Positions 2,635-62,577 of a stretch of 64,000 bases of DNA are shown here, piece after piece. Made by a program: the position numbers and the translations under genes. This DNA is from Chiloscyllium plagiosum (lineage: Eukaryota). Every line of letters starts with the position of its first letter. Positions within the stretch are counted from its first letter, which is position 1. Under the pieces are notes generated by a model. That model was not told the DNA's origin. It saw nothing but the letters and a program-made list of their open reading frames with translations, and searched no databases. The stretch spans positions 10,845,974 through 10,909,973 of the forward strand of contig NC_057719.1 of NCBI RefSeq assembly GCF_004010195.1. Reading direction: 5' to 3'.

Positions 2635-2775
2635 GTATAAATGCAAAATACTGCAGATACTGGAGATCTGAAACAAACACAGAGAACACTGGAGAAACTC
2701 AGCAGGTCTGGCAGCGTCTGCGGAGAGAGATACAGAGTTCATTTTTCAAGTCTGACAAGACTTGTCTTCAGAAGA
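2635..2775 (-). mobile_element. PLE-derived short element with hammerhead core
   Basis: Minus strand CUGAAGA-C-AAGUC-UUGUCA-GACUU-GAAA (2771-2744), followed by the family tail gacctgctgagtttctccag...atctgcagt. Confidence 0.65.
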
Positions 2776-3064
2776 AGAATGATTCTGGGTCACACCCTGA
2801 ACTTGAGGTTTGGTACTGCACTGGACACACTGGTTACAAAGTAAGGTAGTGAAGGAGAATAACAAAATTCAGGGGAGGGGGATGGGACATTGGATGTGCT
2901 GAGTGTAATCGACAGAGAAAAACTGAGACAGGGAGAACCTGCACTGTAAAAAGGCTCGATATTTCTCCAATCATAGTATCAAAATACAGTCAAATCTGTC
3001 CCTTCTCTTTGGCCTTAAAGCACTGAAGGGCGATACTCTCTGGGTACCAGGCACTTTAACCTAC

Positions 3065-3258
3065 CTGGACAAAGCTCTGACACAGCAACGTGACATGTTG
3101 ATAAAGGAGGTAGCATTGGCTCGTGTCTGGAGTGATGTTTCAATCCCTCGAAGCAGGTCATTAGTCTTTAGGAGCAGGAGCATTTGGCGAGGGACCTTGT
3201 TCAGCAGTTCATTGATGCGCGGCAGATATTTAGCTGCTTTTACTCTAATCTCCACGTC
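3065..3258 (-). CDS. ADCK1: Internal coding exon of aarF domain-containing kinase 1 (C-terminal region, probably the penultimate exon), 194 bp
   Basis: Translates DVEIRVKAAKYLPRINELLNKVPRQMLLLLKTNDLLRGIETSLQTRANATSFINMSRCCVRALS, matching recalled vertebrate ADCK1 (human DLEIRNNAANYLPQISHLLNHVPRQMLLILKTNDLLRGIE...SSFLNMSRCCIRAL). Acceptor ttgtcttacag|GAC (AG at 3260-3259), donor CCAG|GTAGGT (GT at 3064-3063); phase 0 start, phase 2 end. Confidence 0.93.
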
Positions 3259-3959
3259 CTGTAAGACAATTGGAACACTTGATTACTCTCGATACAAATG
3301 ACACATTTGGAGATAAATGGTAGATGAGATTGAATGCAGCAAGAAACTATAAGGTGATACATTGTGGGAGTATGAATAAGTACAGGTCAGGCACACTGAA
3401 CAGCAATACTTCGAAGGGAATATAAAAGAACAGATTTCAAGTGATACAGACAAATATCTTTAAAGGTCAGAGGATAGGCTGAACAGGATGTACAAAAAGG
3501 GTACGCATAACAGTAGGTTATATAAGTATAGGTATGATGCCAAAATGCAAAGAGATCATGCTAAGCTTAAAGAAATAATCTTAAAGACCATAATTACAAT
3601 AATCTGTCTGATTTTTAAAGGTTGTCTTTGGGATATGAATGTTGCTGGTTAGGCTAGCATTTATATCCCACTCTTAAATGCCCTAGAAAATGTGGTGGTG
3701 AGCTGCCATCTTGAACTGCTGCAGTTATGTGGCTGCAGAGATACTAACAGTGCTGTGGGGAAGCATTTTCCAAGATTCTGACACAGTGGCATTAAAGGAC
3801 CGGCAATGTATTTCCAAGTGATGGTGGTGCATGGCTTGCAGGAGAGCTTCTAGATGGTGGTTTTACAATGCATCTGCTGCACTTGTCTTTCTAGATGGTA
3901 CTGATCATGTGTTCAGAAATTACTGTCTTAGGAGAATTTCTGTAGTGCATCTTGTAGAT

Positions 3960-7710: not shown

Positions 7711-8024
7711 GCTACTAAACTTGGTGGAAGAAGTGGATGTGGTTCCAGTCAAGAGGTCTGCTTTGTCCTCGATAGTGTCAAGCTTCATAAAGTGTTGTTA
7801 AAGCTGCACTCATCTGGGCAAGTGTGAAGTATCCCATCACAATCCTGACTTGTGCTAAGTAGAGATGGTGGACAGGCACTGGGGAGTCAGGAGGTGAGTT
7901 ATTCATCACAGAATCCCTAGCCTTGGATCTGCTCTTGTAGCTACAGTATTGGGTGCAATACTTTAGGAAATGTATTAGCCTTCCATAGTGGCTATTAGAA
8001 GATGATAGGAATAAATTAATGGCA

Positions 8025-8239
8025 AGATTAGAGTGGTGCTGGAAATGCATAGCAGGTCAGGCAGCATCCAAGGAGCAGGAAAATCGATGTTTTGTGCAAA
8101 AGCCCTTCATCAGGAAAGGGTTTCTGCCCAAAACGTCAATTTTCCTGCTCCTCGGATGCTGCCTGACCTGCTGTGCATTTCCAGCACCACTCTAATCTTG
8201 CCTCTAATCTCTATCATCTGCAGTCCTCACTTTAGCCTT
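8025..8239 (+). mobile_element. PLE-derived hairpin element with 13-bp TSD
   Basis: ~85-bp inverted arms (8021-8107 / 8116-8202); TSD taaattaatggca at 8012-8024 and 8240-8252; degenerate hammerhead on the minus strand. Confidence 0.8.
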
Positions 8240-10765: not shown

Positions 10766-11026
10766 AGAACAGAAATTGCAGGAGAAACCCAGCAAGTTTG
10801 ACAGCCTCATTGGAGAGAGAAACAAAATTGGCATTTCAAGTCCAGTATGTTTCTTCTGCAGGTCAGTATTTCCAGTCTCCAGTAATGCGGAGGGAGAATC
10901 GCGGAATCACAGAGTATTTGCAGCACAGAAAGGAGGTCATTCACCCATCTTGCCTCTACCGGTTCATTTCCTAGTACCAGTCTTCTGACTTTTCTCCATG
11001 GACCTGCATACCACTTCTATCGAAGT

Positions 11027-17286: not shown

Positions 17287-18321
17287 ATGGCTGAGTCAAT
17301 GGACTTGACAACCAGAACCTTGTGGAGATGATGGGGACCTCAGCTGCTAACTGGACATCCAACGGGAATTCCATGTCACCTTTTATCAAAAGCTATTACA
17401 TTTTGTTCAACTCAGGCACTTGACAGGCCACCAATGCGGTCTTTCCCTGTGACAAAGGATCTTGGGATGGAAATCATGCCTGTCAGCTGATCAGAGAGCA
17501 GCAGCCTTACTGAACAGCTGTGCCACAGAAAAGATGGTGGCAGCTGTCAATCCAATACCCACCTGAGGCCTAGCATTGTTGCTGGATCCCAGGCCACAAG
17601 TCAGAGCGGCAGGTTGGGAAGGGTTGGTGGATGAGCAACAAATGGTATCTGCTAGCAGTTCCCCCTTTCCAATACTGGGCCCTTTGGTCAGGCACAGGTT
17701 GTCTTTGAACAAGGACCTTTCCTCCCACACTGTCCTTACCCTCAACTCTAGCAACTTCAAGACAATTGCTCAGAGAGTCTGGCAGGAATCTCCCAAGTAT
17801 GAGGAATTGACATTTTTAGATTTTTGTACTGATAAAGGAAATGATTCCTAAGAAAATAGCTTTGAGATTGAAACTCTGGTTATTACACAGTGAAGCAGCA
17901 TTCGTTCACTGTGCCTGTCTTGAAAAGAGCTCCCCAATTATTCACATCCCCGACACTATTCCTGTAATTCTTTCTCTTTCAACTATTTATCCAAGTCCCC
18001 TTTGGAAATTACTAATATATCTGCTTCAACAGTGCATGCAAGGTCATAATAACTCACTGCATTAAAAACAAATTCCTTTAATTTCACCTTGATTCTTTTG
18101 TCAATTATCTTCAATCTACGTCTGTTGGTGATCAACCCTCCGACCACGAGAACCAGTTTCTTCTCACTTATTTTAACCAAACCAATCATGATTTTGGACA
18201 CCAATATTAACGTTCCTCATAATCTTATCTCCTCTAAGAAGGATAGTCGTCACATCGGTGATAAATAAAACAGGAAATGTTTGAAATACTCAGCTAGTCT
18301 GGCAGTGTCCATGGAGAGAGA

Positions 18322-18680
18322 TGATGTGGAGGTGCTGGTGTTGGACTGGGGTGGACAAGGTCAGAAGCCAAATGACACCAGGCTATGGTCCAACAGGTTT
18401 ATTTGAAATCACTGCTCGTCGGGTGAAGTGAGAGATAAGCACACAGGCACCAAATTTATAGGCAGAGGGATCAATGGGCAGAGAGGTCAAAAGATCATAC
18501 AAATGGCATAACTGAAGTGTTGACAGGCTGAAGAATAAGTCTCCACAGGTTATCAAAACAGTCAGATGGTGTGAGTGAAATGTCAACAACTGAACAGCAA
18601 ATGAAGGGGTGACTTATAATCCAATTAATTGAGACAGACAGATAATTACAAAAGATTAAAAATAAGGTGGTGCTGGAGAC
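18322..18680 (-). mobile_element. PLE-derived element of the AGCU family; hammerhead partly deleted
   Basis: Shares gtccaccccagtccaacacc...tccacatca and ttcaaataaacctgttggac with 19665-19769 and 47690-47880. Confidence 0.55.
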
Positions 18681-19496: not shown

Positions 19497-19504
19497 TCAT
19501 AATA

Positions 19505-19593: not shown

Positions 19594-19664
19594 AACCTAT
19601 TTTTATGAACTTTTTGTTATTCATCTATTTTTCTAATCAATCTGCTCGGAGTTTTTATTACACA

Positions 19665-19769
19665 CTGGGCGAAGGGGCAACACTCCGAAAGCTTGTGATT
19701 TCAAATAACCTGGTATTGTGTGACATCTGACGTTGTCCACCCCAGTCCAACACCAGCATATCCACATCA
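19665..19769 (+). mobile_element. PLE-derived element (AGCU family) with degenerate hammerhead
   Basis: ctgggcgaaggggcaacactccgaaagctt followed by the family tail. Confidence 0.6.
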
Positions 19770-21114
19770 AGTCTTTGTATTTTTACACAGGAATTTGGCA
19801 CTCTTGCATTTGGCCTGATGTGCCCAAGAAGAAATGCTTCAACAACATATCTCTCTTTTTAGCAACAGCCTCAGGTTCTTCCTCAGAGTGCATGATATTA
19901 GAGAGCCCCTTCCACCATTACTCACACCGTGCACACAGTGGAGTATGAAGTATTTGGTATATCAAATCTTGGGACTGAGATTCAGAATACAGCAAGCTCC
20001 TACAGCACACTGAAAGCACTGATTTTATACAGCAACAGCTTGTGCCTTAAATGTTTACAATTGATCCAACTGCTACTAATGGTAATTTCTTATCAATACT
20101 GATTCCTCAATGACAGTCTTATTATTAAAGGTTGGGAGAAAATTGGCCTTGTTAACCCTGAAAGGACTGAATGATGAGGATTATTTCAGCAGAACAGCAA
20201 AAAAAATTAGACTGTCGACAGAGCTGTGGAATAAAATGCAACATTGACAGCAGGGCTGAGAAAAAAACACAGGTTGATGCTGGAAAGGGAGAAAAACACA
20301 GGATTGATATCAGGAAATCATCATCAGACCTCAGGCAGAATAGTGAAGGGATTTTTGTTTTTAACTCATTCAAGGGATGTGGGTGTCGCTGGCTGCGTCA
20401 GCATTTATTGTCCATCTCTAGTTGCCCTTGAGAAGGTGCTGCCATGTGGAAGGGTCACTCAACCAGAAACGGTTAACTCTGATTTCTCCACACAGATGCT
20501 GCTCAGACCTGCTGAGCTTTTCCAGTTTTTGCTTGTGGTTCAGAAGGCAGGCGGTCTATTTGCTGGAGGTGCACCCACAATGGTGTTAGGGAAGGAGTTC
20601 CAGAATTTTGTCCCAATGACGAATAAAAACGTGAAGAAAGATGGAAGCCTAAGCAGGTCAGGCAGCATCTTTCGGAGGGAAATGTCTTTCATTCTCCAGT
20701 TCCAATGTGATTTCTACAGATGCAGCCTGGTCTTTTGACCTGCTGAGTGAGATTTGCCTTCCAGCTTTTTGTCTTTGTTTTAAGATTTCCAGCATCCTCA
20801 GTTCTTCATTTGGGGGAAATACTTTGAAATCATTTCTGAGACGGCAGGGTGTTGTTAATGGGACACTTGGAAGTTTCTCCAGTTAGCTCAGCTTCATCTA
20901 ACTCGTGAACCATGATATTCACCAGTTTGGCCGAGTGACTGTTGACAAACCAATCGACTTGTGAAAGTGCACAGCAGCTGCCCATATTGATCCAGACTAA
21001 CAGACAGATAAGCAATGCTGTACTTAGATTCACTCAAGCATGTACCAAGAGAGCAGATTCTGTGGAATCATTCGTTCTTGCCTCTGGAATGAAGGCAAAC
21101 CAAACAGAATTGAG

Positions 21115-21307
21115 ACTGAAAACAAAAAATATGGAAATCACAGCAGGTCAGACGGCATCCATGGAGGGAGAGCAAGAGCTCTAATGAAGAGTCATCTAGA
21201 CTCGAAATGTTTGCTGGCTGTCTCTCCATGGATGCTGCCTGACCCACTGCGATCTCCAGCATTTTTTGTTTTCAGTACAGATTCCAGCACCTGCAGTAAT
21301 TTGCTCC
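21115..21307 (+). mobile_element. PLE-derived hairpin element with hammerhead-like core
   Basis: Inverted arms; CUAAUGA-A-GAGUC-AUCUA-GACUC-GAAA at 21181-21207. Confidence 0.7.
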
Positions 21308-21389
21308 TGCAAAGAGATTTGATATTTGGTTTAAGCTGGCATTGTCACCTTGCAAGCTGCAGCACTATTCCCCAACTTGTGCTCCCACT

Positions 21390-23144: not shown

Positions 23145-24492
23145 ACCATAAGGCAGAGGAGCCATTTGGCCCATTGTGTCTACCCTACCATTCAATCATA
23201 GCTGATAGGTTTTTCAATCCCATTTTCCTGCTTTTCCCCTATAACCTTTGATTCCTGTGGTAATCAAGAACTTATCTATCTCTGCTTTAAATACACACAA
23301 TGACTTGGCCTCCACTGCCTTCTGTGGCAACAAATTCCAGATTCCCCACTCTCTGGCTGAAGAAGTTTCTCTTTATCTCCGTTCTAAAAGGTCTTCACTT
23401 TACTCTAAGGATGTGGTCCCAGGTCCTCATTTCTCCTATCAATGGAAACATCTTAACATCCACTCTGACCAGGCCGTTCAGTATTCTGCAAGTTTCAGTT
23501 AGATCCCCCTCATCCTTGAAGGAAGGGCCTGTGCCCGAAATGTCGAATCTCCTGTTCCCTGGATGCTGCCTGACCTGCTGTGCTGTTCCAGCAATAAAGT
23601 TTCAACTTTGATCTCCAGCATCTGCAGACCTCACTTTCTCCCCCTCATCCTTCTAAACTCCATCGAGTACAAACCCAGAAACCTCAAACGTTCCTCGTAT
23701 GTTAAGCCTTTCGTTCCTGGAACTATTCTCGTGAACCTCCTCTGGACGCACTCAGGGCTAATACATTCTTCCTGAGGTACAGGGCCTAAAATTGCTCACA
23801 ATACTCTTAAACATCCTATAAAGCCTCAGAAGTACCATCCCTGTTTCTAAATTACAGTCCTCTCAAGGTGAATGACAACATTGTATTTGCCTTCTTAACT
23901 ACCAACTCAACCCGCAAGTTTACACGAAGAGAAACCTGGACGAGTCCCTTTGAACATGAGATTTCTGAATTTTTTTCCCATTTAGAAAATACTCCATGCC
24001 TCTATTCTTCCAATCAAAACGCATGACCTCACACTTTCTCACATTGTATTTCTTTTGCCACTTCTTTGCCCACTCTCCTAGCATGTCTACATCTTTCTGC
24101 AGCCTCCCTACTTCCTCAATACTACCTGTCCCTCTGCATATCTTTGTATCATTTGCTAATTTAGCCAGAATGCCCTCAGTTCCTTCATCTCGATTGTTAA
24201 TGTATAAAGTGAAAAGTTGTGGTCCCAACACTGACCCTTGTGGAATACCACTTGTCACCGGCTGCCATCCTGAGTAAAACCCTTTCATCCTCACCCTCTG
24301 CCAGACAGCCAATTTTCTACCCATGCTAACACCTTGTCTCTAACACCATGGACCCTTATCTTACTCCGCAGCCTCCCATGCAGCACCTTATCAAAGGCCT
24401 TCTGGAAGTCCAGATAGATAACGTCCATTGGCTCTGTTGGACTAACCTACACGTTTCCTCCTCAAAGAATTCTAACAGGTTTGTCAGGCATG
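23145..24492 (-). mobile_element. CR1 RT fragment through 3' end
   Basis: SGIPQGSVLGPQLFTLYINN...AKLANDTKI...YNVRKCEVM. Confidence 0.9.
23518..23638 (+). mobile_element. PLE-derived solo element nested in CR1, 14-bp TSD
   Basis: TSD tccccctcatcctt at 23504-23517 and 23639-23652; begins in the hammerhead core (gaagggcctgtgcccgaaatgtcgaat). Confidence 0.8.
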
Positions 24493-26220: not shown

Positions 26221-26532
26221 ATAGGCGAAAGTGAGTACTGCAGATGCTGGAGGTCGGAGTCAAGATTAGAGTGGGGCTGGAAAAGCACAGCAGGTCAGGC
26301 AGCATCTGAGGAGCAGAAAAATCGACTTTTCGGACAGGAGCCCTTCATCAGGAATGAGGCTGGGGGCCTCCGGGGTGGAGAGATAAATGGGAGGGAGGTG
26401 GGGCTGGGGAGAAGGTAGCTAAGAGGTGGATGATTCTCTCCCAGCCCCACCCCCCCCCTCCCATTTATCTCTCCAACCCGGAGGCTCCCAGCCTCATTCC
26501 TGATGAAGGGCTCCTGCCCGAAACGTCAATTG
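26221..26532. mobile_element. PLE-derived hairpin element with two opposed hammerhead cores
   Basis: Inverted arms ~26320-26412 / ~26435-26530; near-perfect 13-bp TSD tctttctctc(c/t)at at 26208-26220 and 26533-26545. Confidence 0.8.
26496..26531 (+). ncRNA. Minimal type I hammerhead ribozyme motif
   Basis: AUUC-CUGAUGA-A-GGGC-UCCU-GCCC-GAAA-CGUC; first stem I pair lost (G>A after the cleavage site). Confidence 0.7.
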
Positions 26533-26669
26533 TCTTTCTCTCTATTAAATGACTCAGTCCATCTTCTTGTAAAGCGCTTCATTTATTTGCATAAAAGGCA
26601 GACTGATTTTTAAAAAAAAATTCCAGGGGCATGGGCACCGCTGGCAGTATCAGCATTTATATAGAACAT

Positions 26670-33282: not shown

Positions 33283-33322
33283 GCACTGAGGATGTCACCT
33301 AGACAGGGGACGAAACGTTTGC
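33283..33322 (+). ncRNA. Minimal hammerhead ribozyme in an inverted Penelope pLTR
   Basis: GCA-CUGAGGA-U-GUCaCCU-AGAC-AGGgGAC-GAAA-CGUU-UGC; stem I GCA/UGC, predicted cleavage after 33319. Confidence 0.8.
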
Positions 33323-40765: not shown

Positions 40766-40858
40766 ATTCCTGAAGAAGGGCTTTTGCCCGAAATGTCGAT
40801 TTTCCTGCTTCTGGGATGCTACCTGACCTTGTGCTTTTCCAGCGCCACTCTAACCTTG
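40766..40858 (+). mobile_element. PLE-derived solo element with hammerhead core
   Basis: AUUC-CUGAAGA-A-GGGC-UUUU-GCCC-GAAA-UGUC-GAUU; flanking ctgtgata at 40758-40765 and 40859-40866. Confidence 0.75.
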
Positions 40859-41911
40859 CTGTGATAGACTACAACCTGTATGTGCACCCACTTTTCAAGC
40901 CTTCACTGCAGTGATCAATTTATTCCCAAGATGTGGATGTTGCTGGGTAGGCCAGCATTTATTGCCCATCCCTAATTGCTCTTGAGAAGGTGGTGGTTAG
41001 TTGCTTTCTTGAACCAGTGGGTACAATTTTGACCAAGCCAGCTGGGAGATACTTGCATAAACAAATACAGCAGATGGCACCAAACTGTGAATTCTAGTGA
41101 ACACTGATGAATTGAAATTGGGAGGAGATACATACTGGTAAGGACTGAGATGAAGAGAAGTTTCTTCTCCCAGAGAGTGGTGAGCCTGTAAAGTGCCACA
41201 GAAAGTGGTTAAAGGCAAAACTTTGAGTATTTGCAAGTTGGAGTTCGATAACTTTAGGTCTAAAGAGTTAAAAAGGATAAAGGGAGAAAGCGGTAACAAG
41301 ACATTGAGTTGGATGATCAGGCATGGCCCACTCCTGCTCCATTTTATGACGTTTCCATGAATAAGGAAAAACAATGCATTTTGAATAACGCAACTTTAAA
41401 TAAAAGAGAGTAGTGCACGAATGCTTGTACTCAAGGCAGTACAAAAAAAGCATCTTGGATCCTGGGCTTTATAAACAGAAGCAGAGTATGAAAAAAAGGA
41501 CATTATGCTGAAAAGAAATAAAACAGGCCTCAGTTGTTTTCTTTCGTGGGATATGGACTTAGCCAGAAAGATTTCTCTTAACCACAAACTATTACAAATC
41601 ATAAAATCACTAGCCATGCAATCTATCATTGGCCACCAGGAATCTCAATTCTTTACCAGAAATCTTTGAAAGCCCCACAACAGCTGAGTTCTTACTGTCA
41701 TTCTGACCTGTGCCAACTTCTACTGGTTCCTTCAGTTTAGGTTCCTCCTGCTGTCTACTTCTACCCAAAATTGCCACATATTCTGTTGCAGTTGTGTGTG
41801 GTTCCTGCCTGTAATAATTGAGGCATTACCAAGCCAAATATGGACGCTGCATGGCTACATTTCAAAGCTGTTACCTCTACATTCTTAGCCCTGCTTCTTT
41901 GATCACCTCAT

Positions 41912-42445: not shown

Positions 42446-42607
42446 AAAAACAATGACTGCAGATGCTGGAAACCAGATTCTGGATTAGTGGTGCTGGAAG
42501 AGCACAGCAATTCAGGCAGCATCCGAGGACAGGCAAAATCGACGTTTCGGGCAGAAGGGCTTTTGCCCGAAACGTCGATTTTGCCTGTCCTCGGATGCTG
42601 CCTGAAT
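42446..42607. mobile_element. Young PLE-derived hairpin element, 17-bp TSD
   Basis: TSD tggagggacaaggtggt at 42429-42445 and 42608-42624; perfect 46-bp inverted arms 42508-42553 / 42564-42609. Confidence 0.88.
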
Positions 42608-43369
42608 TGGAGGGACAAGGTGGTTGAGTGGGTGAAGATTTCTTGATGATTGCACAGTAACAATAGGAAATCTAAGGACCAATGAAAGTCACAGAATCTG
42701 GTCCTCAGACGTCAAGGAGAATTCAAAATACAGACTCAAAGACCAAAGAAAATCCCAGAATTAGTCCAAAAGACGTATGCGATAGGGGCAGGAAGAGGGT
42801 GCACGGCTCTTGAGCCTATTCTGCTGAATAAACAAAAGATGGCTGACCATCATCTTTAACTCCACTTTCCCACCCAATCAACATATCTCTCCATTCCTTT
42901 GAAGTCCAAATCTATCTGTCTTAGAACAAAAAAAACAAAGAACTGTGGATGCTGAAAATCAGAAACAAATTGCTGGAGAAACCCAGCAGGTCTGGTAGCA
43001 TCTGTGGAGAGAAAGCAGAGTGCAGAGTTGGGACCTCCTCTGATTAATTTCAAGCCATTAATAGACATGGAAACTAGTTAAACAGAGAGAGGCAGTGTCT
43101 TCGTGGTTATGTCACTGGAATCCAGACACACAGACTAATGATTGACATGGGCTTAAATCCCGCTATGACAGATGGTAAAATTTGAATTCAATAAAAATCT
43201 GGAATTAAACCTAAACTAACGGCAATCACATAACCGTTGTTACTTGTTGCAAAAAAAATTTGGCTCACTAAGGTCCTTTAGAGAAATCTGATATTCTTAT
43301 CTGGTCTTTCTCCATGCGATTCCACAACAATGGGGTTGACTCTTTACTACCCTCTGGGCAATTACACCA

Positions 43370-43801: not shown

Positions 43802-46800
43802 ACCCTCTGGAATACATAGGACTTGAATCCAGGTATCCTAGTTCAGAGGTAGAGACACTAACGATGCCCCATCAATTAGAGATGGACAATAATCACAAAT
43901 GAAATGTCCAGCAGACAGGCTGTTGAAGCTTGTGGGCAAATTAGAAATCTTCCAGATTAACAATTTGGCTGCAATGCACAATAAGTAATCCATACTCTAA
44001 CAGTGACAAGAAGGTGCTCTTTCAGATATTTAAAAAAACCCGTAATAATCCCAGATCCAGTTGGAGGTTTAAACTTCCTCCTACAAATTGTGTGCAACCA
44101 AAACATCGAACATGTCAGAAATGAGGTACACCAGCTAGTCTCCATTACTGATGCTGTCAGAGCCTGAAAATTTACCCGCGAGTGTCTATCCTGTCAAGTT
44201 TTCTCTGGTTAATTTTTCTCTTATTTCATATTTCCAGCCCCCAACTGTGTTGCCTTACCTCAGCATCAAATGGAAGTCCTGAGCTTGATTTCAACTGAGA
44301 CATTGTCTAAGTTCTCAGTGTTTGCGGACCAACTGAGGAAGCCTTGACTGAATGCTAGGTCGAATGGCCTGTGTGAGCTCATAATCACTTAGTTACTGTA
44401 AGGCATTTAATTTCAAACACATGTGAAAATGCAACTGAATGAGCAAAGTATTTTTTTTAATTTTTAAGAAGGATGAGCTCATACTGTAAATCAATAATTT
44501 AAAGCTTCCTTAATCACTTATATTAATAATTGTTAAATAATTTACTGGGAGTTGTACATTATTTATGATTGATATTAATACAAACCTCATTCGCTGGGTA
44601 TTATCTGATGGAAGTCTACTTCAATCAAATTAGAAGTCTGGGGATTATCATGGTGTGAGGAGCCATATTGCTGAGTAGACTGTCATTGAGAATTCTCCTC
44701 TCAGTGAGATGTAACTTTGTCAAGAACAGCAGTCCACGGTTGAGCATTAGCAAGCCCACTGCTCCATGAGAGAGAACAGGGTAATGCAAGGCTTTTTTGC
44801 AATTTTTGCACCAATCACATCATGACTTTCAAACACAATACCTGAAAGTGTTGTCCTTGAGGGCATCACACCTCAAAAGAATCACATTCTAGGTTTGCAC
44901 ACATCAACGTGTCTTGCAGTTGTCATGGAGAAATTAATGAGGTTATTAATCACGTATCTGATCGACTAAATGCAAAAGACAAATGCGATTCATTGGACAG
45001 GTGCCAATAAGGAATGACTAAGCAGCAAAAAGCGAAGCAATCAAGTGTCTCAATTTTTTTCCCAAAGCTCCCAATCTTGAAATGGCAAGTAGTGGAAAAT
45101 GTTTAATGAAACCATTCTATTACATGGGTGAATTTAGTTGTGATCGCTGCTGTGAGTTCAGCTGTATGAAATTAGACTCATGGAGCTAACATTCGTAATG
45201 GAGTGGACACGCTAACAGATAATTCAGATGCATATTCTTTCAAGCAGCGCTATGTGTACAGTATTTTAAGCGCGAGGAAAACATTTTTCTGCAGAGACAC
45301 ACTCTTGTACCTGCTATCTGCAACTCAATTTAATGTACATGACCCAGAGCGTCAATCACTGAGTTGGGCTTCCTTGCCATTTTTAAATTCTGCAGATGTC
45401 ATCCAAAGAGTGTTACAGTCATAAATGTCTACAGGACAGAAAAAGGCCCTTCAGTCCATCGATCTGCACCAGTCAAAATAACCACTTAACTATTCCAGTA
45501 CTTTTCTTTTATTCATTTGCAGTATATGGGTGTCCTGGCTGGACCAGTATTTATTGCCCATTCCTAATTGCCCTTGAGAAGGTGGTGGTCAGCTGCCTTC
45601 TGAATTCTTTGCAGTCCATCTGCTATAGGCTGACCCACATTGCCCTTAGGAAGGGAATTCCAGGAATTGAAGGGGAACTTGCAGGTTGTGGTGTTCCCAA
45701 ATATCTACTGCCCTTGTCCTTCTGGATAGAAGTAGTTTGGAAGGTGTTATCTAAGGATACTGGGCAAATTTCTGCAGTGCATCTTGTAGATAGTACACAT
45801 GGTTGCTGCTGGATATTGCTGAGAGATGGATGTGGTGCCAATCAAGCAGGCTGTTTCGGAAAAAAATGAAAGAACTGCAGATGCCGAAAATCAGAAACAG
45901 ACCAGAAATTGCTGGAAGACCTCAACAGGTCTGACAGCATTTGTAGACAGAAATCAGAGTTAACAATTCAGTCCAGTGACCCTTCCTCAAATCTGATGGC
46001 AGCTGGGAAGCAGGCGCTTTGCCTGGGATAGTGACAAGTTTCTTGAGGATTGCTGGTGCTGCGCCTAGGCAAACAAGTGGGGAGTATTCCACCACACTCT
46101 GAACTAGTACCTTGTAGATGGTGGACAGGATTTGGGGAATCATGAGGTGAGTTATTTTCTGCAGTTTTCCTAGTCTTGGCCGCTGTGTTTGTGTTGAATA
46201 CAGTTGAAATTCTGATCAATGGTAACTCCAAGGAATTTGGATAGTGGAGGATTCAGTGATGGTAACACTACTGAATGTCAAGGAGCAGTGATTCGATTGT
46301 CTGCTATTGGAGATGTTCATTACCTGCCTTTGTGTAATGTGGATGTTCCTTGCTACTGGTCAACCCAAGCATGGGTGCTATTCAGATGTTGTTGCATTTG
46401 ACTGCTTCAGGAATTGAGGAGTCGCAAATGCTTTTATACATTGTACGATCATCAGCAAACCACACTTCTGACCTTATGGTGGAGCAAAGTCATTGCTGAA
46501 GCAGCTGAAAATGGTTAGGCCCAGGACACTATCCTGAAGAACTCCTGTCGAGATGTCCTGGAGTTGAGCTGACTGACCTCCAACAATCACAACCATCTTC
46601 CTACGTGCCAGTTACTTTCAGCATTTGGCCCATTGTTTTGTATGCCTTGGTATCACAAGTGCACATCTGATTAATTCTTAAACATTATGAGTGTCTTTGC
46701 CATACCACCCTTACAGGTAGTGAGTGAGAGATTCCCGACCATCCTCTGATTGAACATCCCCCTAAATCCCACATTCCTTACCTTAAATCTATGTTTGCTG

Positions 46801-47689
46801 GTTATTGATCCCTCCATCAAGTGGAATAGTTCCTTCCTGTCTAGCCTATCTCTGCCACTCATAATTTTAACCTCAATCAGTCTCTTCTGCTCCAAGGAAA
46901 ATAGCCAAAGTCCATCCAATCTCTCTCCATAACTGAAACTCTCCAACTCCTTACCTCCTAAACCACTCGTAGGGAAGTGACAAAGCCATTGTGTCTTGCT
47001 AGCAGTGGACAGAATGGGAACTTTGGTGTCATTAGAATCACTAGTATAATCACATCGTTTTGTTGATTTACCTTTGGTTTTGCATTCGTTCGACCATGTG
47101 CTAGCATTCATGGCTCATTTTCAGTTGCCCACATTTACGAGGCCAAGGTATACAGGTTATGGGTCAAGTGATGGAAAATGGGATTAGAATAGTGAGGTGC
47201 TTGGTGAAGACTCTGTGGGCAGAAGGCTCTTTTTCTGTGTTGCAGACCTCCATGACTCTAATTATGATACAACTCAATGCCTGACTGAACCACTTCAAAT
47301 AGTGAACAGTCAACCATGTCGGTGTGAAACGGGAGTCAAGTTTAGGCCAGATCAATTAAGGATGGCATCATATTTCCCGATAAAGGAACATCGATGAAAG
47401 TTTTCCAAAACAGAATTCAAATTCTCAAACAGTCAGTGTTTCATTTTGCAATCTTTGGATTACTAACCCAGGCCAGGCAGTAGGAAACCCACTGTTTCCA
47501 AATCGTTTTGCATGCATACATCCAGATTAAGGTTCTTCCAGACACCCAACAGTCAGTTTAAAATTTAAACTGTGAAGTGAAAAGCAGTTAAGTCTAAAGC
47601 TGAGAGTCAAGCGTCTTACGAATTGAGGATTCAGAGCTACATCAGAGAAAGGAAAAACGAAGCAGCATTCTCAGCTACTATGCTGTTGA

Positions 47690-47880
47690 AAATCACACAA
47701 CACCAGGTCATAGTCCAGCAGGTTTATTCGGAAGCGCTAGCTTTCGGAGTGCTGCTCCTTCATCACGTAGCTGTGACTTCACTTGGCTAGTGTTTCCAAA
47801 TAAACCTATTGGATTATAACTTGGTGTTGTGTGATTTTTAACTTTGTCCACCCCAGTCCATCACTGGCACCTCCACATCA
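47690..47880. mobile_element. PLE-derived hairpin element (AGCU family)
   Basis: Inverted arms aatcacacaacaccagg.../...tggtgttgtgtgatt; minus strand GUGAUGA-A-GGAG-CAGCA-CUCC-GAAA-GCUA at 47766-47738. Confidence 0.75.
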
Positions 47881-50311: not shown

Positions 50312-50689
50312 GTACATCTGGAGCAGGTGGGTCTTGAACCCAGGCCTTCCAGCTCACTGATAAGGACACTACCGATGTACCGCACGAGTGCTCTGTTAAG
50401 GAGAAGGGGATAAATATCAAGTATTGCTAATCAACCATGCAGGCATTGAAAAATACTACAAATGTGGCATCACATTCATTTAGGTATCAATTGCTATTGG
50501 AGATTTCAAAGATGCCGAATTGAGAATGCAAGTTTTTTCTGTTCTCTCTTTTTGTCTCTTCCTTCGAGTCCAATCTTTCTTCCTCTTTTTCTTCCCCTTT
50601 CTTAATTGCAATTTGGCAATTAATTCACTCGCTTTAAGTCAGTCTCCTTCAAAATCCCACTGCAGTTAATATTCCACTTCTTCAGCATG

Positions 50690-50775
50690 GAAATGTGTTG
50701 CTGGAAAAGCGCAGCAGGTCAGGCAGCATCCAGGGAACAGGAGAATCGACGTTTCGGGCATAAGCCCTTCTTCAG
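50690..50775 (-). mobile_element. 90-bp PLE-derived solo element with intact hammerhead core
   Basis: Minus strand CUGAAGA-A-GGGC-UUAU-GCCC-GAAA-CGUC-GAUU; TSD cttcttcagcatg at 50677-50689 and 50767-50779. Confidence 0.82.
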
Positions 50776-51679
50776 CATGACTGGGAAGGAAGATACCCAA
50801 TTGGTTGCCCTGTTTACTCTGATCACAGATGCCCTGTTTCTCTCACTGTGCCAGTTCACACTCAGCATTTAACTCAGCAAAAATCTCTGAGATGGGATTG
50901 TAAGGGCAACTCTAATTAATGCTAGATACCCTACTCTGGCAAAACCGAGTCCACAGTTTCTTTAGCTAAATTGTCTAATAACTAGAATTAAGTGACTAAA
51001 TTGTAATGTGAGAATTTATGATTATTAAGAGTTGAATTGCAAGAGCATTTGAAGTGAAGAATTTAAAAAGAATAAATGGCAGTGGTAACTAAGGTTGATG
51101 AGTCCACACTGAACTGTACAGGCTTATAAATATCTTAAAAGCATAAGGTATTTCTATACTCATCACTAATTCATGGGCTCACTTCCAACCAATGAAGACC
51201 GTTCCAAATTAGGCATTTCTTCCTTTGTTGTTTATCGAAAAAGAAGACCTCAGTAACTCATAAACATACTAGTTCACAACACTGCACTCTACCTTTGAAC
51301 CTGCCTCTTTACACTACCAGACAGTACATTTATATAGCACCTTAACAACTATCAAGGGCACTTCACAGGAACACAACATTACGGAAGTTGACTGTGGCCT
51401 CGAAGCAGGAGGAAGAAGCAGAGCTGAAGAGCCTTACAAAGAAAGCTTAGGGACAAGGCAGCTGAAAAATGGCCATTATTGGTAGGGGAATCAGGGATTG
51501 AGAGGAGTTCAGAACGAGAGGAGCACTGAAGATTTGGACAGTTGTAGGGTAAAACGAAGTTGGCTTAACAATGTTCATTTTGAAAAAACTGCCTTGGGAG
51601 TGTAACTGACTGGATCAGAATTCATTGCCCATTCCATATTGCCCTTCAGAAGCTGATGATGGGCTACATTCTTGAACTG

Positions 51680-51878
51680 AGATTAGAGTGGTGCTGGAAA
51701 AGCACAGCAGGTCAGGCAGCATCCGAGGAGCAGGAAAATTGACATTTCGGGCAAAAGCAGGGCTCCTGATCGAAATGTCGATTTTCCTGCTCCTCGGATG
51801 CTGCCTGACCTGCTGTGCTTTTCCAGCACCACACTAATTCTGACTCTGATCACCAGCATTTGCAGTCCTCACTTTCGC
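51680..51878 (+). mobile_element. PLE-derived hairpin element, 16-bp TSD
   Basis: TSD ctacattcttgaactg at 51664-51679 and 51879-51894; ~70-bp inverted arms. Confidence 0.85.
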
Positions 51879-53079
51879 CTACATTCTTGAACTGCTATAG
51901 TGTACAGCACCTTTACCTTAGGGTACACCCACAGTGCTGTTAGGGAAGGTGTTACAGAACTTTGACCCAGTGACAATGAAGGAGTGGTGATATAGTCCCA
52001 AGTCAGAATACTGCATGACTTAAAGGGGAATGTACAGGTGATAGGTATTCTAATACATAAGCCACCCTTGTCCTACCAAGTGGTAATGGTTTACTAGGCT
52101 GGTGTTTAACCATTTAGTAGCTGCATATACTTTTGGTAGACAATTGTTACCTTCCCAGTTCATACACTGAAGCAAAGCAAAAGAGAGACTGAAGTAGACA
52201 GAATGTAAAGTGCCACTTTCCCCGTCCTTCCTAACTTGTCATTACTCATTAAGCAGTACCATCGCATCTGTGCAACACAGATTTGAAACAAAATACATGA
52301 GGTTGGATTCTGGAAACTTGATGGGTGTGGAAATGGATTCTGTCAGGCCACTGTTGGCAGATAGACTGTTTGCCAGCTTGGTTTCCACCCTATACTGTTC
52401 TCAAAAAGCTTTGTGTTGAAGCTGGAATTAGATATCACCACACAGCCTGCCACCAATGGTCGATAACCAATAAAGTAATGGAGTCTTTTAAAGGCCCATG
52501 CTGACAAGCACCTGTGCTGACCAGGATGTGGCCAATGAGAGCAGGCAGTGTGCCACCCACAGTGGCTATACCGTAATGAGCACAGATACAGCAGCAAGAC
52601 CACCTTGTGGAGGGCAGATTGGTAGCTATCGTCTTTCTGTTGTGTTGAGGCACCCACTCTCTTTCTCTCTCCCATGCATAATGCCAGTTGCCAACTCCTA
52701 CCTGCCCTCCAGATTTGAGGGCTCACCCATTGCCTCTTTAATTGGATGGCTGGCATGCCCTCTGGACATCAATTGTTCTGATACTGAAATACCTTTTCCA
52801 GAGTCTCCTTTCAGACTGGTGTGGGGCAGGAAACCAGGCTTACCCCAACATTGGGTTCCCAGCTGGGATAGAAATCCTGGGCCTTAGTACTATTCCTGCC
52901 TGGCCTGGATACAGCAGCCACTCTCTGGTCTTAAGAACAGCAGGTCCCCTAAAGCTCAGGCCCTGGTTATTGGACCCTGATGGAGACCACAATCTTGGTT
53001 TCCAGGTCCAGAAAGAAACTTTCATGTATAATTTCAGAAGCCTAAACAGACAATCATGAACTCTCTATGATGAAATTTT

Positions 53080-53443: not shown

Positions 53444-55525
53444 CAACCTCTTTCATCAACTTTCTCAACTGTACATAGATGTTTCAAGTAGTACTGTGCT
53501 TTCAGGATGGATCATGTGCCTTCAGAGAATAGCTCGCCAATTCGGGTGTAATGAACCCTGCAGAGCAGAAGGTCATCAGTATGAACCCAGATCCTCTGAA
53601 GTCGTTGATCTCAACCACTGCTGCCACAGTATTATCCTTAATATCTGTAGGTTAGGGAAGGAAAAAGTGAGCCAGGGCTTCTATAGCTGAATGACTATCC
53701 ATTAACTCCTGGATACAGTCAGACAAAATTAGGCTTGTCAATCATTCCCCCTGAGATTCAACAGTCTGTTGCCATTCATTGTCAAGTAAAAGAATGGCAT
53801 TGATCAAAGGTGACAAGAGCTTTCAGTATCTGTGAAAATATTCTCCCAGGAGGAAATGTGGAAAGACAAGAAAGGCAAATAAAGAAAAAGGGGAAGAAAA
53901 AAATTGTTGGTATATTTGACAAAATTATTTTTAAGTCAGATTAAATCAGAAACTGTCCTGAAGGAATTCAAATGGAGCAATAAAAGAGTTAGGGTTAAGG
54001 ATTTGTGAGTGAGCTCAATGTAATGGAAAGTCATGGAGTGGAATGGGAGACTGTTAATGGGGTGGGAGATGGTGACCGCTGACGGAGGAGAGGGGGGTGG
54101 GGTCCAGTATTGAAAATTTATGGATTGGAGAGCAGGCTGGTGGAGAGGAGAAGCCTGTTATGGATTTTCAACAGCGCAGGGCCAATGCTGGAAGAAAGGT
54201 AGCAGTTGATGAGTTTGGCAAGGGAAGCTAGTTGGGATACCGGGAGCTGATTCAGTGGGGTTCAAAAAGGAGTTTCTTCAGTCTGACTGTGCTGTCGAGT
54301 GTGATGGGGGTTTGGAAAGTGAGACTGAACAGGCGAATCAATTGGATGAGAAGCGGCAGATGAGCAGAATATTTTAGTTACAGACTTCAGGAAATCCACA
54401 AATTCCTTATATTGGGGAGTTGGAAGCGGGGGTTTAATTATCCAAACCTTCACATCACTGTGAAGCTGGGGAGGAATTTGTGTGTGAGGCAGAGTGGGGG
54501 GTGATCTTCATATCTCCAGCTGCATTCTGCAGCTCAAACCTTAAACTTGCTCATTTTGGAACAAACTCAATTTCAGATAACACACAGCAATGCTAACAAT
54601 TGGAAAATGATTATAATCCCAGCCAAACCTCCTGAGGCGAGAGCATTTATGAAAAATAAATTTCTTTTCCTCCCCTTAGTTTGTGCCTTTAATTCAAAAT
54701 AGACACCTCTCCAATTGTCAGGCCAAACAATAAATTCTGACATGAGAATGGGTGCCTTCAGGGTAGCCTCATCCTAAACTAGTTTCATTTTACTTTTTTA
54801 AAATCATATGAAATAAAAAAATGTCAATGTCATGCCAAAGACTTGCTGCTTCATGCAACCTTAATCCCCTTTATTTAATTTAAGTCTGTTTATGGCAATT
54901 GGTTGGACACAAGGAAGTAACTGAGCTGGAAGTTTTAAGTTTGAACTTAAGGGCCTTGGTCTACAATCCAGGGTCATGAACCCAATACCCAGGTAACTTC
55001 CAGGTCATGACCCTTGTTGCACTAGAGTTGCTCATACAATGCAAATCTAGATGTCAGATTAGCAGCTCCTCAACCCATACCAGGATGTTGGAGCTGCCTC
55101 CTGAATACACCATCAAAAGCAGATCATAGGATCATACAGTACAGAAGAGGCTCATCGGCCCATTGAGTCTGTACTGCCAAAGCTACACTAGCTCCATGAC
55201 AACACCCATTGACAACCACTGCAATGCAGAAGAGAGGAAACGGAACCTGAAGGGAGCTAGCAGCTTCACCGCACAGAAAAACAACCAAGATAAAGGCTGC
55301 CATTTGAGTATGGTATTACTCTTCCTCAGTGACTTAATGACTAATTTCAAAGAAGAGTCATTCCAGACATGAAACATTACCTGTTTCTCTCTCTCCACAA
55401 ACATTGCCAGACCTGCTCAGCTTCTCCAGCTTTCTCCATGTTCGCTTCAGATTTCCAGCATCCACATCATTATGCTTTTATTCAAGATAAAAGCTACTGC
55501 ACCCTATCCAGAACAAGGTAGCCCT

Positions 55526-58987: not shown

Positions 58988-59312
58988 ACGGTGGATCAGT
59001 GATTAGCACTGCTGCCTCACAGCACTAGGGACCTGGGTTCGATCCCAGCCTTGGGTGACTGTGTAGAGTTTGCACATTCTCCCTGTGTCTGTGTAGGTTT
59101 CCTCCCACAGTCCAAAGATGTGCAGGTTATGTGGACTGGCCAAAGGAAATTGCCCATTATCAGGGCAAATTGCCATTATCAAAGTAGCCAATTGAAATTC
59201 AAGGTTACAGGGATGTGTGGTGGGGGATGTGTCTGATTGGATGCTCTTCGGAAGGTCGGTGTGGATGCGATGGGCCGAATGGCCTGCTTCCATACTGTAG
59301 GGATTCTATGAT
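58988..59312 (+). mobile_element. V-SINE (HE1-like); partial copies also at ~37094-37256 (-) and ~59816-59976 (+)
   Basis: Head, V-domain and tail. Confidence 0.85.
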
Positions 59313-61089
59313 CCTCTCTAATCCTCAAGTCACAATCAGCGATCAAAGAAAGAAGAATCGGTCAGATATCACCTGCCACTACAGTATTCAGTGGAGCATG
59401 CCAGCAATTTAGAAAGGGACAACAGAGAGGTAACCTCAATCATAAGATAAAGGCAGAAACATTTGTAAATGTCATGTGACCAGACAGGCAACAATCAGAC
59501 ATCATGTGACCAAATGACACGTTAAGAAACCCTCAAGAATTGATAATGGGCAGGTCATTCACCACACCACAATACAGGGCTCGAATCATCCAGGGGAACA
59601 ACTCCACTCCCTCCCCTCCCCTCTCCATTTAAACAGAACTAAACACACAACACAATTTAAAAACCTTCTTCTTCACCCAGCCAAAAAAAAAGGACACGGT
59701 TTGGAGAAAGAACATTGTGTTACTTGGCAGCTATTAACATAATGGAGCCAGCACTGACATGGTAACAACATAACAGATATAGGACGATAGATATCTGCTA
59801 GAAGATTTGTGTAACGATGTGCAGGTCAAGTGAATTGGCTATGCTAAATTGCCTGTAGTGTTAGGTGTATTAGTCAGAGGGAGATGGGTCTGGGTGGGTT
59901 ACTCTTCGGAAAGTCGGTTTGGACTTGTTGGGCCAAAGGGCCTGTTTCCACACCTTAGGGAATCTAATCTAATCTAAATTGGTGGTGAAATTTACATGAC
60001 TAACGCTAGGGGACTCTGAAGTGTCCAGACACAAACCCTGGTCCAGTCTTTGTCACGCACATGTGCCATGAGTCATTCCTAAACTGGGGAATGGAAAACC
60101 AAACATTGTGCTTTCAAGCAGACATTTACTTAGACTATAATGTGTGCCCAGGTCTATCACATTCATACTGGGATCTGCTAAGTGCCAAAACAATGTCACT
60201 GCAAAGCAGAAAATGTGTCAACTCAAATGGGAGCCCTGACACATGAGTAAAAGGTTTAGTTGCATTAGCCACAGGATTCAGAGAAAACAAACTATCCCTC
60301 AATGTGACAGTTCTCATCTCCTCGGCGAGGTGATGGATTTATAAACTGCTGCAGGTTGTTTTTTTCTGGCAAGAGAATTAAATGGGTTAAAAGAAGGGAT
60401 GTTGATCAGATAGGCTCCCCCTGGATACAGGAAGGTGCCTATATATGTCTGATTCCACACACTACATGATCTCTTGGTGCATCTGTTCATAAAATAATAA
60501 ACTGGTATCACTCAGTGGTCACTCACCAAAGGAAAAAGTGCTGAAGAAAATAAAATCCCTCTCTAACTATGGAAAATGTCCTCTTGTAAATCTCACTCAA
60601 TCTAGAATCCAGAAGGGGGACATACACCGACATTACAACAGTGACTAAACCTCTAAAAGATACTGACTGCTGAGTATTTTAGACATTTAAAGATCACACA
60701 AAGAAATATGAAAGCTTGCATCTTTGGTCATATCTCCGTCAGCTGACCACAAGCAGCAAGCCAGGTCTGCTCACCTTACCACAGAACATAGGACTCCATT
60801 TCAATTTGAAATAGATAAAGACGGAATATAATGTCGAGAAATGTGAGATTATGCGCTCTGGCAGGGCAATAAAAGCTCTGTGTTGTTTCCTGGTGTATAT
60901 CATTACCTAGAACAAAGGACAAGAACAAAGAAAATTTACAGCCCAGGAATAGGCCCTTTGGCCCTCCAAGCCTGAGCCAATCCAAATGTACTGTCTAAAC
61001 CTGTCGGTCAATTGCTAAGCATTTGTATCCCTCTGTTCCCCACCTACTCATGCATCTGTCCAGATGCATCTTAAATGAATCCACCATGA

Positions 61090-62577
61090 ATATCCCCTGT
61101 TTTCTCCTCGTATCCCTGTATTTGCATCAAACTGGTCACCCCAGTCACTCTTTGTGCTAGCGGGTTCCATGTTTTAACCACTGTCTGAGTAAAGAGTATT
61201 CTCCCGCATCCCCTGTTGAGTTTACTTGGCCAGGTTAGTAGGGAGGGATTATATGTTTTAGTGGCGTGCAATTCAGGAAGGGTCGAAGTGAGGAGCTGTT
61301 CTAGCATGGTGATTCACACTGAGTAGGAACACATTAATATTTAATTTCTAACCTTTTAAGCAAGGGTTAGCTTGGGCTGAGAGGGGAAAGCAGAAAGTGT
61401 AGGAGCATTATTGACAGACTGCCACACTCGGGTGAACCCGTAAGAGCAGCGGGACAAACATAAGATTCTCATCCTGCTCTTAAGGCTCCGCACAATGTCA
61501 ACCAATACCACTTGTTGCTAATCCCTGAATTGAACAACTCCCTCCACCCTCTCATCACAAGTTCTCTGTTCTCTTGACCTTCTACACACCTCTCCCTCCC
61601 CGTGCCCCCACCACTTTCAACTGAGTCTTCGATCTAGCTCCATGTCTGCAATTTCCCGCCCTGAACCTGCCACCTCCCTGCCATCCCTTCCTTTCTATTG
61701 CCTCGTCTTGATTAGAGAAAGGGACAGAGGACATGTAATACCAGAGAAGAATGAGTGAAAGCCCATTTGTGAGAGACCACACAGAGAACAGGCGACACCG
61801 GGGATGAGTTTCAAAATACTATCCTTTGATCAAGTTTTCAGTCACATTTTTTGACATGTACTGGTATTCACTTCTTTTTAAAAACCCACCTCTGTGATGA
61901 AAGCGCGCTCTGAAAAAGAGTCATCTCGACTTGATGGACGCTGCTGCAATCTTCACCAGTTGTTGTTTTCAGGACAGATTCCAGCATCTGCAGTAATTTG
62001 CTCCTATCTCTGTGATCATTTCTCCATGTTAAAAATCACTGCATGTGAGCAGGTAGGAAGGGCCAAAGCTGACACAGAATTTGCTCATTCAAAAAGTAAC
62101 ATCAAGATCACAATGCTCAACTAAAACATGCACATTATTAGTGAGAAATAGTGATTCTCTTTTGTGTAACATCTCAGAATCATTTCCATTTCCAATGTCT
62201 AGAGAGTTTAAATACAATGCATTCTGCACGAGATGCAGCTTCACCCGAGTGTGACGGCCTGTCAATAATGCTCCTTCACTTTCTGCTTCTCCCCTCAGCC
62301 AAGCTAACCCTTGTTTAAAAGATTAAAAATTAAACATTAACATGTTCCTTCTCAGTGTAAATCACCGTGCTAGAACCAGCTCCTCACTTCGATCCTCCCT
62401 CTAGTGCATGCCACTAAAATATATAATTCCTAACCTGGCCAAGTAAACTCAACAGGGGATTCGGGAGAATGCTCTTCACCCAGACAGTGGTTAGAACTTG
62501 GAACCCTCTCGCACAAAAAGTGACTGGGTGAACAGTTTGATACAAATACAGGGGTATGGGGAGAAAACAGGGGATAT
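61090..62577. repeat. Local inverted duplication: arms 61090-61436 and 62240-62577, spacer ~800 bp
   Basis: Arms align in reverse complement throughout, including an exact 31-mer at 61208-61238 / 62430-62460. Confidence 0.92.

Follow-up and report, generated by a model that had tools for sequence, protein, structure and literature searches.

The hammerhead insertions of the window

The DNA analyzed here, a window of 64,000 nt at positions 10,845,974 to 10,909,973 of contig NC_057719.1 in the 3.56 Gb genome of Chiloscyllium plagiosum, contains many dispersed copies of a minimal hammerhead ribozyme. Coordinates below refer to this whole window, and L-numbers denote sampled loci elsewhere in the same genome. 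A first-pass annotation had listed ten recognizable cores and six degenerate ones, and read them as short non-autonomous families moved by Penelope-like elements (PLEs). Both sets of sites are present, with coordinates correct to within ~1 nt, but the whole core plus the palindrome of stem III was found in only four of the ten (26500, 33286, 38335, and 50775). Core 26500 (+) has lost the first pair of stem I and core 50775 (-) the 5' strand of stem I, the core and palindrome being complete in each. Elsewhere, the palindrome is broken (40770 on the plus strand; 26351 on the minus strand; 21181 on the plus strand, where G5 is also replaced by A; and 2771 on the minus strand, where H17 is G), or the core itself is substituted (C3 to G in 47766 on the minus strand, G12 to A in ~8112 on the minus strand). 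The earlier description of the core as largely fixed applies to the lineage consensuses, not to the listed copies, six of which carry substitutions in the core or palindrome.

A BLAST catalog of the window comprises 29 segments in ~22 insertions, 7 of which are head-to-head, covering 2,876 bp in total (Table 1). This corresponds to one insertion per ~3 kb rather than the one per 4-5 kb first suggested, about a dozen arms having been overlooked. A strict descriptor (CUGANGA, a stem II of at least 3 bp, and GAAA) matched 7 cores in the window, compared with a mean of 0.7 (maximum, 4) in 200 dinucleotide shuffles; when the palindromic stem III and NUH were added, 4 cores were observed versus 0.01 in the shuffles. 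Counts so far above the shuffled ones exclude chance as the origin of the motifs. An Rfam search of the window found no hammerhead family at E values up to 5, and its sub-threshold microRNA (miRNA) matches reflect only the hairpin at 26323-26528.

Lineages and their link to Penelope-like coding DNA

The short motifs are almost certainly the 3' ends, composed of pseudo-long terminal repeat (pseudo-LTR), hammerhead, and tail, of autonomous PLEs. There are at least four PLE lineages, three of Neptune type (A, B, and C) and one of Poseidon type (D), in agreement with the proposal of several subfamilies with covarying stems. The suspected Penelope-like connection also holds, each lineage having been traced to coding DNA for reverse transcriptase (RT)/GIY-YIG. 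The idea of independent short non-autonomous families is not supported, for the stubs look identical in sequence to the 3' ends of protein-coding PLEs. In the window, lineage A, with its subfamilies A1, A2, and A3, includes the motifs at 38335, 50775, 23515, 26351, 26500, 40770, 8112, and others; lineage B includes 21181, 61910, and older variants; lineage C includes 47766 and 19665; and lineage D includes 33286.

At L030, a lineage A motif extends into an RT with a YIDD motif. When an RT-thumb query for lineage A was used, 21 of 30 loci, one of them the query's own, had a motif within 1.5 kb, and a hand count placed it in sense downstream in 17. In L063, an 893-amino-acid (aa) open reading frame (ORF) ends 160 nt upstream of the motif; it matches RVT_1 (E, 6e-8) and GIY-YIG (E, 3.5e-4, below the cut-off) and contains a DKG motif and a CX4CxxC linker. 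A CX2-5CxxC linker preceding the endonuclease is the Neptune/Nematis criterion of PMC8557442, by which the L063 protein would be of Neptune or Nematis type. Such a linker was found in L063 (A), in L174 (B), and in L081, which was placed in lineage C by an adjoining piece of pseudo-LTR; judged by this predicted feature, lineages A to C are classed as Neptune (or Nematis) type. The closest named relatives of the lineage A protein are uncharacterized proteins of Chiloscyllium punctatum (77-83%), Mobula (73%), and Rhincodon (70%), which fits a shark or ray host. The PDB yielded no match to the L063 ORF at E values up to 1, and Pfam found nothing in two short ORF pieces.

The lineage A tail is followed by ~35 nt and then by the start of the ORF, as seen in L274, where pseudo-LTR, motif, tail, and ORF start lie in a row, and in L058, where the tail precedes the ORF N terminus; motif and tail would thus stand at both ends of the unit. 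No complete single element was recovered among the sampled loci. L274 also holds a composite insertion (~2130-2700, minus strand) made up of an inverted arm; a pseudo-LTR, motif, tail, and 130 nt of ORF start; and a second pseudo-LTR, motif, and tail, an arrangement that suggests template jumping.

Lineage C has a second RT, 37% identical to that of lineage A, and in 24 of 30 loci the motif follows it downstream in sense orientation. For lineage B, the decayed end of a Neptune-type ORF is contiguous with the motif in L174, and L184 holds one Neptune-type ORF end in inverted orientation. In lineage D, the GIY-YIG frame reads into the motif and there is no linker zinc finger (frames of L111, L123, and L115), features by which this lineage is assigned to the Penelope/Poseidon type. 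In the window copy (33286-33395) and in L115, this ORF has its stop codon within the loop of stem II, and a second frame, which runs on through the tail, opens with an ATG where stem II begins, the arrangement reported for the Anolis Poseidon element PAc.

Both lineages A and D are abundant: exact genome matches number 24,895 for a 38-mer of the A1 tail and 17,057 for a 22-mer of the D tail. A sample of 36 stretches of 10 kb, placed arbitrarily and totaling 338,596 called bases, contained 21 intact motifs, compared with 0.1 in shuffles, which extrapolates to roughly 200,000 intact motifs in the genome (Poisson range, ~130,000-320,000).

Ribozyme architecture and decay

Covariation was assessed in seven hand-chosen lineage representatives, with pairs counted by anchoring on the core because MAFFT misaligned the D-type motifs. 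The core CUGANGA...GAAA with NUH is complete in all seven, position 10.1 is always G (six G-C pairs and one G-U pair), and a bulged A or U always follows A9. Stem II was imposed by the search and stem I was not; stem I has 18 of 21 Watson-Crick pairs, compared with 7.3 over all permutations, a fraction of 0.0004 that is no true probability because the lineages are related. Each of the first two stem I positions shows three different pair types across the representatives, and in lineage A only 2 pairs of this stem are contiguous. The stem III palindrome is ACGU in A, B, and D and AGCU in C (14/14 pairs). The covariation of stem II noted at first pass is borne out and extends to stems I and III, and the representatives possess the core, both stems, and the palindromic stem III of a minimal type I hammerhead. 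Folding predictions pair two copies with each other at the palindrome (-21.9 versus 2 x -8.2 kcal/mol), outside the active fold. Further hammerhead variants with a 7-bp stem II, related to lineage D, occur at L208:364-407, L156:324-367, and L024 but not in the window.

Non-CpG changes in the core and in its neighbors numbered 51/2,156 versus 129/6,021 in A1, 40/758 versus 332/6,023 in A3, and 9/833 versus 97/7,130 in D, rates that are lower bounds because the samples include loci retrieved by similarity. An excess of core conservation over the flanks, proposed as a check on selection, is absent within these groups; it is present in lineage C (46/1,450 versus 674/12,253), whose sample is a mixture of subfamilies. 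The notion of a selected RNA structure therefore stands between lineages and not for the inserted A and D copies, which decay neutrally: the ribozyme is selected in source elements, with no selection evident after insertion.

Ends of the insertions

Insertion ends were measured from C3 of the core, taken as position 0. The A1 sample consisted of the first 100 exact tail-pattern matches on contig C1 and was blind to the 5' end. Among these arms, 46 begin at -6 to -1 and 37 at 0 to +32, and 17 reach further than 40 nt; their 3' ends fall at +83 to +98 in 58 and at +120 to +131 in 42. These arms are not all independent, because 53 of them have an inverted partner within 300 nt. The 47 solo arms behave alike, with 24 starting at -6 to -1 and 31 having the short-tail 3' end. 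Of 70 lineage C arms, 27 have their start between -13 and -2, and 17 reach further than 25 nt; the 5'-end sample of lineage B was swamped by A tails. Lineage D served as a control: among 30 arms, 24 extend at least 57 nt, 3 end at a palindrome at -28, and 3 start downstream, none having its end at -27 to +17; in another sample, 2 of 11 arms end at -23. The D 3' ends cluster at ~+74 and ~+112. The two 3' ends of the insertions are spaced by 36-38 nt.

Head-to-head pairs combine one long-tail and one short-tail arm in 183 of 199 cases (A, 120/131; C, 38/43; D, 25/25). Long-plus-short pairs that have target site duplications (TSDs) of at least 10 nt number 101 in A, 25 in C, and 23 in D. Overall, TSDs are ~9-20 nt long, and microsatellite targeting was not evident in the sampled insertions, although no formal test was applied. 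The arms meet at 1-3 nt of microhomology or at short palindromes, and junctions, 3' ends, and inversion centers vary from copy to copy. At subfamily-informative sites, the two arms of a pair disagree at 43/762 in A (5.6%, versus 34% when permuted), 29/193 in C (versus 35%), and 6/184 in D (versus 40%). At L014:1501-2066, a single TSD encloses arms of two A subfamilies, a direct sign that one insertion can use two RNA templates. Such an origin was rejected as the rule for pairs, as only this 1 of 101 TSD-flanked pairs is mixed; other mixed A1/A2 labels proved to be misclassifications of near-identical arms.

These features also led us to reject a DNA transposon or miniature inverted-repeat transposable element (MITE), for the arms are unequal, the junctions are variable, the TSDs are 9-20 nt, and the ends run into RT-coding DNA; neither fixed terminal inverted repeats nor a fixed short TSD was found in the window or sampled copies.

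The predicted ribozyme cut site, +28, is the exact start of 5 of the 100 A1 arms. A cleavage footprint drawn from these five was not upheld in a targeted sample of arms ending at +24 to +34 (a filter passed by ~988 arms genome-wide), where 3 of 30 start at +28 and 0 of 9 do so among host-flanked arms. By hand count of the 100 arms listed, 18 start at +28, 11 of them at microhomology joins or small deletions, versus 18 at +33, and there is no clear pile-up at the predicted cut site in the sampled arms. At L216 (~1488-1640; contig C1, 1850241 onward), a 168-bp tandem duplication begins at the exact predicted cut site and includes 3' host flank; it may be a retrotransposed cut product or an assembly artifact.

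A model for the short copies

We propose, with a probability of about two in three, that the short Neptune-type copies are reverse transcripts running from internal priming sites to the element RNA's 5' end, made by priming from both ends of the target. Transcription by RNA polymerase II would begin at an initiator (Inr)-like CA that lies 4-8 nt upstream of the core and ~31 nt downstream of a TATA-like box. Both target strands would be nicked by the element protein, and the DNA ends would each be extended from one of two internal sites; where the primed site copy is the one closest to the RNA 5' end, the cDNA would end at a length of 90-130 nt. A palindrome would result from two cDNAs of this kind, probably united through 1-3 nt of microhomology, and a solo stub from one joined to the target. 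Uncleaved RNA would be the main template, with the ribozyme selected only in source elements. Lacking the upstream box, the stubs are probably dead ends.

Measured from the A of the 5' peak, an AT-rich box lies at -29 to -32 in most extended copies (A, 30/36; B, 6/10; C, 19/27). The peak is 4, 4, and 8 nt upstream of the core in A, B, and C, respectively; the spacing to the box is what the three have in common. At the peak is an initiator-like CA step, the TATA box and Inr being recognized by their consensus forms. At -4, RNA reads have heterogeneous junctions (72 reads). In vitro, a PLE protein cuts and extends both strands, two internal RT starts define the tail, and hammerhead mutants still insert (PMC11167929). 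Priming of both strands from two internal starts explains the long-plus-short pairs.

Several observations weigh against this proposal. Lineage D has no 5'-end peak in its 30 arms even though it has a TATAAAT box at -53. The TATA and Inr motifs were picked after the consensus had been seen. No transcription start was observed, as the RNA reads contain no pile of molecule starts and no peak of ends; all that they reveal is that stubs are read through on both strands. The signature expected of a cap is mixed: in 10 of 19 arms and at 30 of 55 non-palindromic junctions (hand count), the nucleotide before the start A is G, but it lies outside the TSD in only 1 of 14 solo TSD-flanked arms. Pairing between target and template is the same in stubs (3.08 of 7) and extended copies (3.14; background, 1.88) and therefore does not indicate which site copy was primed. 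The coding link of lineage B comes from 1 of 30 B loci.

A narrower version of the model, in which Neptune-type PLE RNA starts with the hammerhead (in A and B, the cap would sit on the first stem I base) and two internal sites serve to prime both ends of a staggered cut, occasionally on two RNAs, is tentative, and we consider it more probably wrong than right. If this version were true, hundreds of thousands of stubs would form a fossil map of transcription start and two-ended priming, and the ribozyme would be a switch that removes the cap from the element mRNA, not a means of release from a host transcript.

Head-to-head pairs could instead arise by self-primed fold-back of one cDNA, as proposed for inversions of Adineta Penelope elements (PMC3846280). 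The match between the arms of a pair fits fold-back synthesis as well as our model and thus counts against the latter, and the short microhomologies and palindromes at junctions are also compatible with it. However, short-tail ends are found alone, and the short-tail site therefore primes independently; in many pairs, the long arm cannot be copied from its short partner, either arm may reach the 5' peak, and the two subfamilies joined in L014 need two RNAs. We regard fold-back as unlikely, though it is the best of the competing accounts.

Less likely again is that the 5' peak is a site of processing or stalling, at which the endonuclease re-cuts new DNA in its own pseudo-LTR or RT drops off after unwinding the hammerhead. 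The endonuclease of PAc prefers ATT near the ORF-pseudo-LTR junction (PMC11167929), and the A peak begins with ATT; in A and B, the peak also falls on the 5' strand of stem I, and the TATA box without a peak in D would be accommodated. Yet the B and C peaks lack ATT, the three lineages share their spacing to the AT-rich box and not their distance to the core, and if the fold itself blocked RT, synthesis should end on its 3' side.

It is also improbable that the stubs replicate independently as non-autonomous elements resembling short interspersed elements (SINEs) or retrozymes and use PLE proteins in trans. Their defined 5' end, own TSDs, and very high copy number would be natural for such elements, the internal Inr/downstream promoter element (DPE) promoter of Drosophila virilis Penelope (PMC2377424) means that a stub might keep promoter activity, and retrozymes have been proposed to derive from pseudo-LTRs (bioRxiv 10.64898/2026.07.22.740005). 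But stubs and ORF-linked copies have the same motif and tail sequence, the variability of junctions, 3' ends, and inversion centers is expected if the structures are built at each insertion, the conserved AT-rich box lies outside the stub, and no tandem motif arrays occur in the window.

That the hammerhead cuts element RNA in vivo and that the cut products are the major templates is very improbable: although core, stem I, and palindrome are conserved between lineages, some A1 arms start exactly at +28, and two copies are predicted to pair, the counts around the cut site speak against it, most stubs keep an uncut core, and the predicted dimer lacks stem I, which is so short in lineage A.

Catalog of PLE ends and other repeats in the window

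TSD-like repeats of at least 8 nt flank 9 of the 16 window insertions checked and were not found at 5; two further matches of 7 nt were disregarded. The long arm of the B pair at 21115-21308 begins 4 nt upstream of its core, the A2 stub at 23508-23641 belongs to the same subfamily as the hammerhead behind the ORF of L063, and in the A3 pair at 26223-26534 both arms keep ~60 nt of pseudo-LTR with the AT-rich box, making a 200-nt hairpin.

Table 1. Ends of Penelope-like elements in the window
Position	Strand	Feature	TSD or basis
2631..2780	-	B-like (old Neptune-type) PLE end, decayed core 2771	BLAST catalog; 11-nt TSD-like repeat, 1 mismatch
8024..8239	.	Head-to-head A3 pair: short-tail arm (-), core ~8112/8113; long-tail arm (+) starting in stem II	14-nt TSD
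10769..10842	-	Old B-like end fragment	Catalog
18267..18413	-	Adjoining old B-like tail (18267-18322) and coreless C-type tail (18321-18413)	Catalog
19660..19770	+	C-type variant, AGCU palindrome, degenerate core	Catalog
20459..20529	+	Degenerate B-like end, 5' half of core gone	Catalog
21115..21308	.	B pair, head to head: minus-strand short arm (21115-21176) and plus-strand long arm (21177-21308)	Catalog
23508..23641	+	A2 stub, long tail, degenerate core	15-nt TSD
26223..26534	.	Head-to-head A3 pair, cores 26351 (-) and 26500 (+)	13-nt TSD
28112..28241	-	Decayed A3 stub, long tail; absent from the first-pass list	Catalog
33100..33238	-	Inverted C-terminal GIY-YIG fragment of Poseidon-type lineage D, part of the 33286 insertion	48/54 aa identical to D ORF in L111
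33257..33395	+	Lineage D end, intact core 33286, long tail	Catalog
38331..38423	+	Young short-tail A1 stub; starts exactly 4 nt upstream of intact core 38335	13-nt TSD
40766..40862	+	A3 stub starting at -4, core 40770, palindrome broken	8-nt TSD
42457..42605	.	Head-to-head A3 pair with its junction within stem II; lacks a complete core	Catalog
42952..43012	-	Old B-like tail fragment	Catalog
45858..45990	-	Degenerate B-like end (first listed as ~45985)	Catalog
47685..47880	.	C pair, head to head: minus-strand short arm (47685-47775; start at -9; core 47766) and plus-strand long arm (47786-47880)	Catalog
50688..50775	-	Young A1 stub starting at C3 of intact core, short tail	15-nt TSD
51678..51880	.	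Head-to-head A3 pair with its junction in stem II; lacks a complete core	18-nt TSD
55345..55490	+	Old B-like end, degenerate core	Catalog
61905..62006	+	B-type end, internal deletion, degenerate core	11-nt TSD-like repeat, 1 mismatch

No host exon was identified in the window, where Pfam applied to 101 frames (100 of the 189 frames of at least 72 aa, plus one 60-aa piece) gave only RT/endonuclease fragments of the long interspersed element (LINE) type. These fragments (RVT_1 and Exo_endo_phos_2), which we take to be CR1/L2-like, lie at 32031-33000, 23923-24339, 4639-5061, and 7340-7597, all on the minus strand, with more LINE-type repeats near 5850, 31455, 36016, and 40041; one LINE fragment contains 859 N at 56027-56885. 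An abundant SINE-like repeat of ~300 nt (families D3, D5, D7, and D8), presumably akin to the HE1-type SINEs of sharks, occurs at 11030-11330, 12090-12440, 19180-19500, 29170-29470, 41920-42230, 50015-50238, and other positions. Copies of the dispersed families D14 and D16 are found at 2285, 3668, 10377, 20363, 38928, 40966, 45558, and 51629, and the PLE ends at 20459 and 51678 lie inside or directly behind such copies. A tandem array at 16541-17285 has 10.9 copies of a 69-bp unit with 72% matches. For annotation, stubs and palindromes of the kind listed in Table 1 should be filed as PLE ends and not as SINEs, MITEs, or miRNA hairpins.

Comparison with known systems

Hammerheads in PLE pseudo-LTRs, solo truncated motifs, opposite-strand pairs, inverted copies, tails, and promoters have all been published. 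Cervera and De la Pena (2014; PMC4209133) described minimal hammerheads in the pseudo-LTRs of metazoan PLEs, with many consensus families per genome. The motifs studied here share with theirs the type I form, the lack of a real helix III, the palindromic 15.2-16.2, the extra nucleotide after A9, and the G10.1-C11.1 pair; they also occur mostly as solo motifs, ascribed there to truncated PLEs, and as opposite-strand pairs 100-700 bp apart. That study counted ~4,000 motifs in the coelacanth and ~9,000 in Xenopus, compared with our estimate of ~200,000 intact cores, obtained with a different descriptor. No shark was found in its text or searchable supplement, and no description of a shared 5' start of truncated copies was found in the text. 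Our literature search, with Dfam and Repbase outside it, found no report of PLE hammerheads in sharks and none of truncated copies anchored to a transcription start.

Non-LTR retrozymes (bioRxiv 10.64898/2026.07.22.740005) likewise carry type I hammerheads derived from PLE pseudo-LTRs and are reported in one chondrichthyan. They are head-to-tail tandem elements, whereas the copies here are dispersed, solo or head-to-head, with TSDs; we saw no head-to-tail hammerhead array in the window, the sampled copies being solo or head-to-head, and an identity with retrozymes was rejected on the lack of tandem units.

Neptune-type PLE units (PMC8557442 and PMC3846280) agree with lineages A to C in having a single ORF with DKG, RT, a CX2-5CxxC linker, and GIY-YIG at the C terminus, and also in their 5' truncation, inverted 5'-truncated copy, tail of 30-40 bp at one end, TSDs, and TATA and Inr-like motifs in the pseudo-LTR. 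They differ in that most insertions here consist of hammerhead and tail alone and their two arms end at a single point, that the TSDs of pairs are ~14-20 nt, and that microsatellite targeting was not evident on informal inspection of the sampled insertions. The 5'-end peak belongs to the Neptune-type lineages and not to the Poseidon-type lineage D.

Lineage D resembles Anolis Poseidon PAc (Frangieh et al. 2024; PMC11167929), which also lacks a linker finger, has an ATG at the start of stem II with a frame through the tail, and has two 3' ends (+74 and +112 in D). PAc primes without homology in vitro, whereas the targets of lineage A show similarity to the RNA sequence past the start site (3.1 of 7 matches versus 1.9). 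The PLE transposition cycle and the role of the hammerhead are described as open in PMC8557442. The tens of thousands of young, near-identical insertions in this genome make ends countable, and in vivo these ends agree with what was found for PAc in vitro: two internal starts, priming of both strands, and dispensable cleavage.

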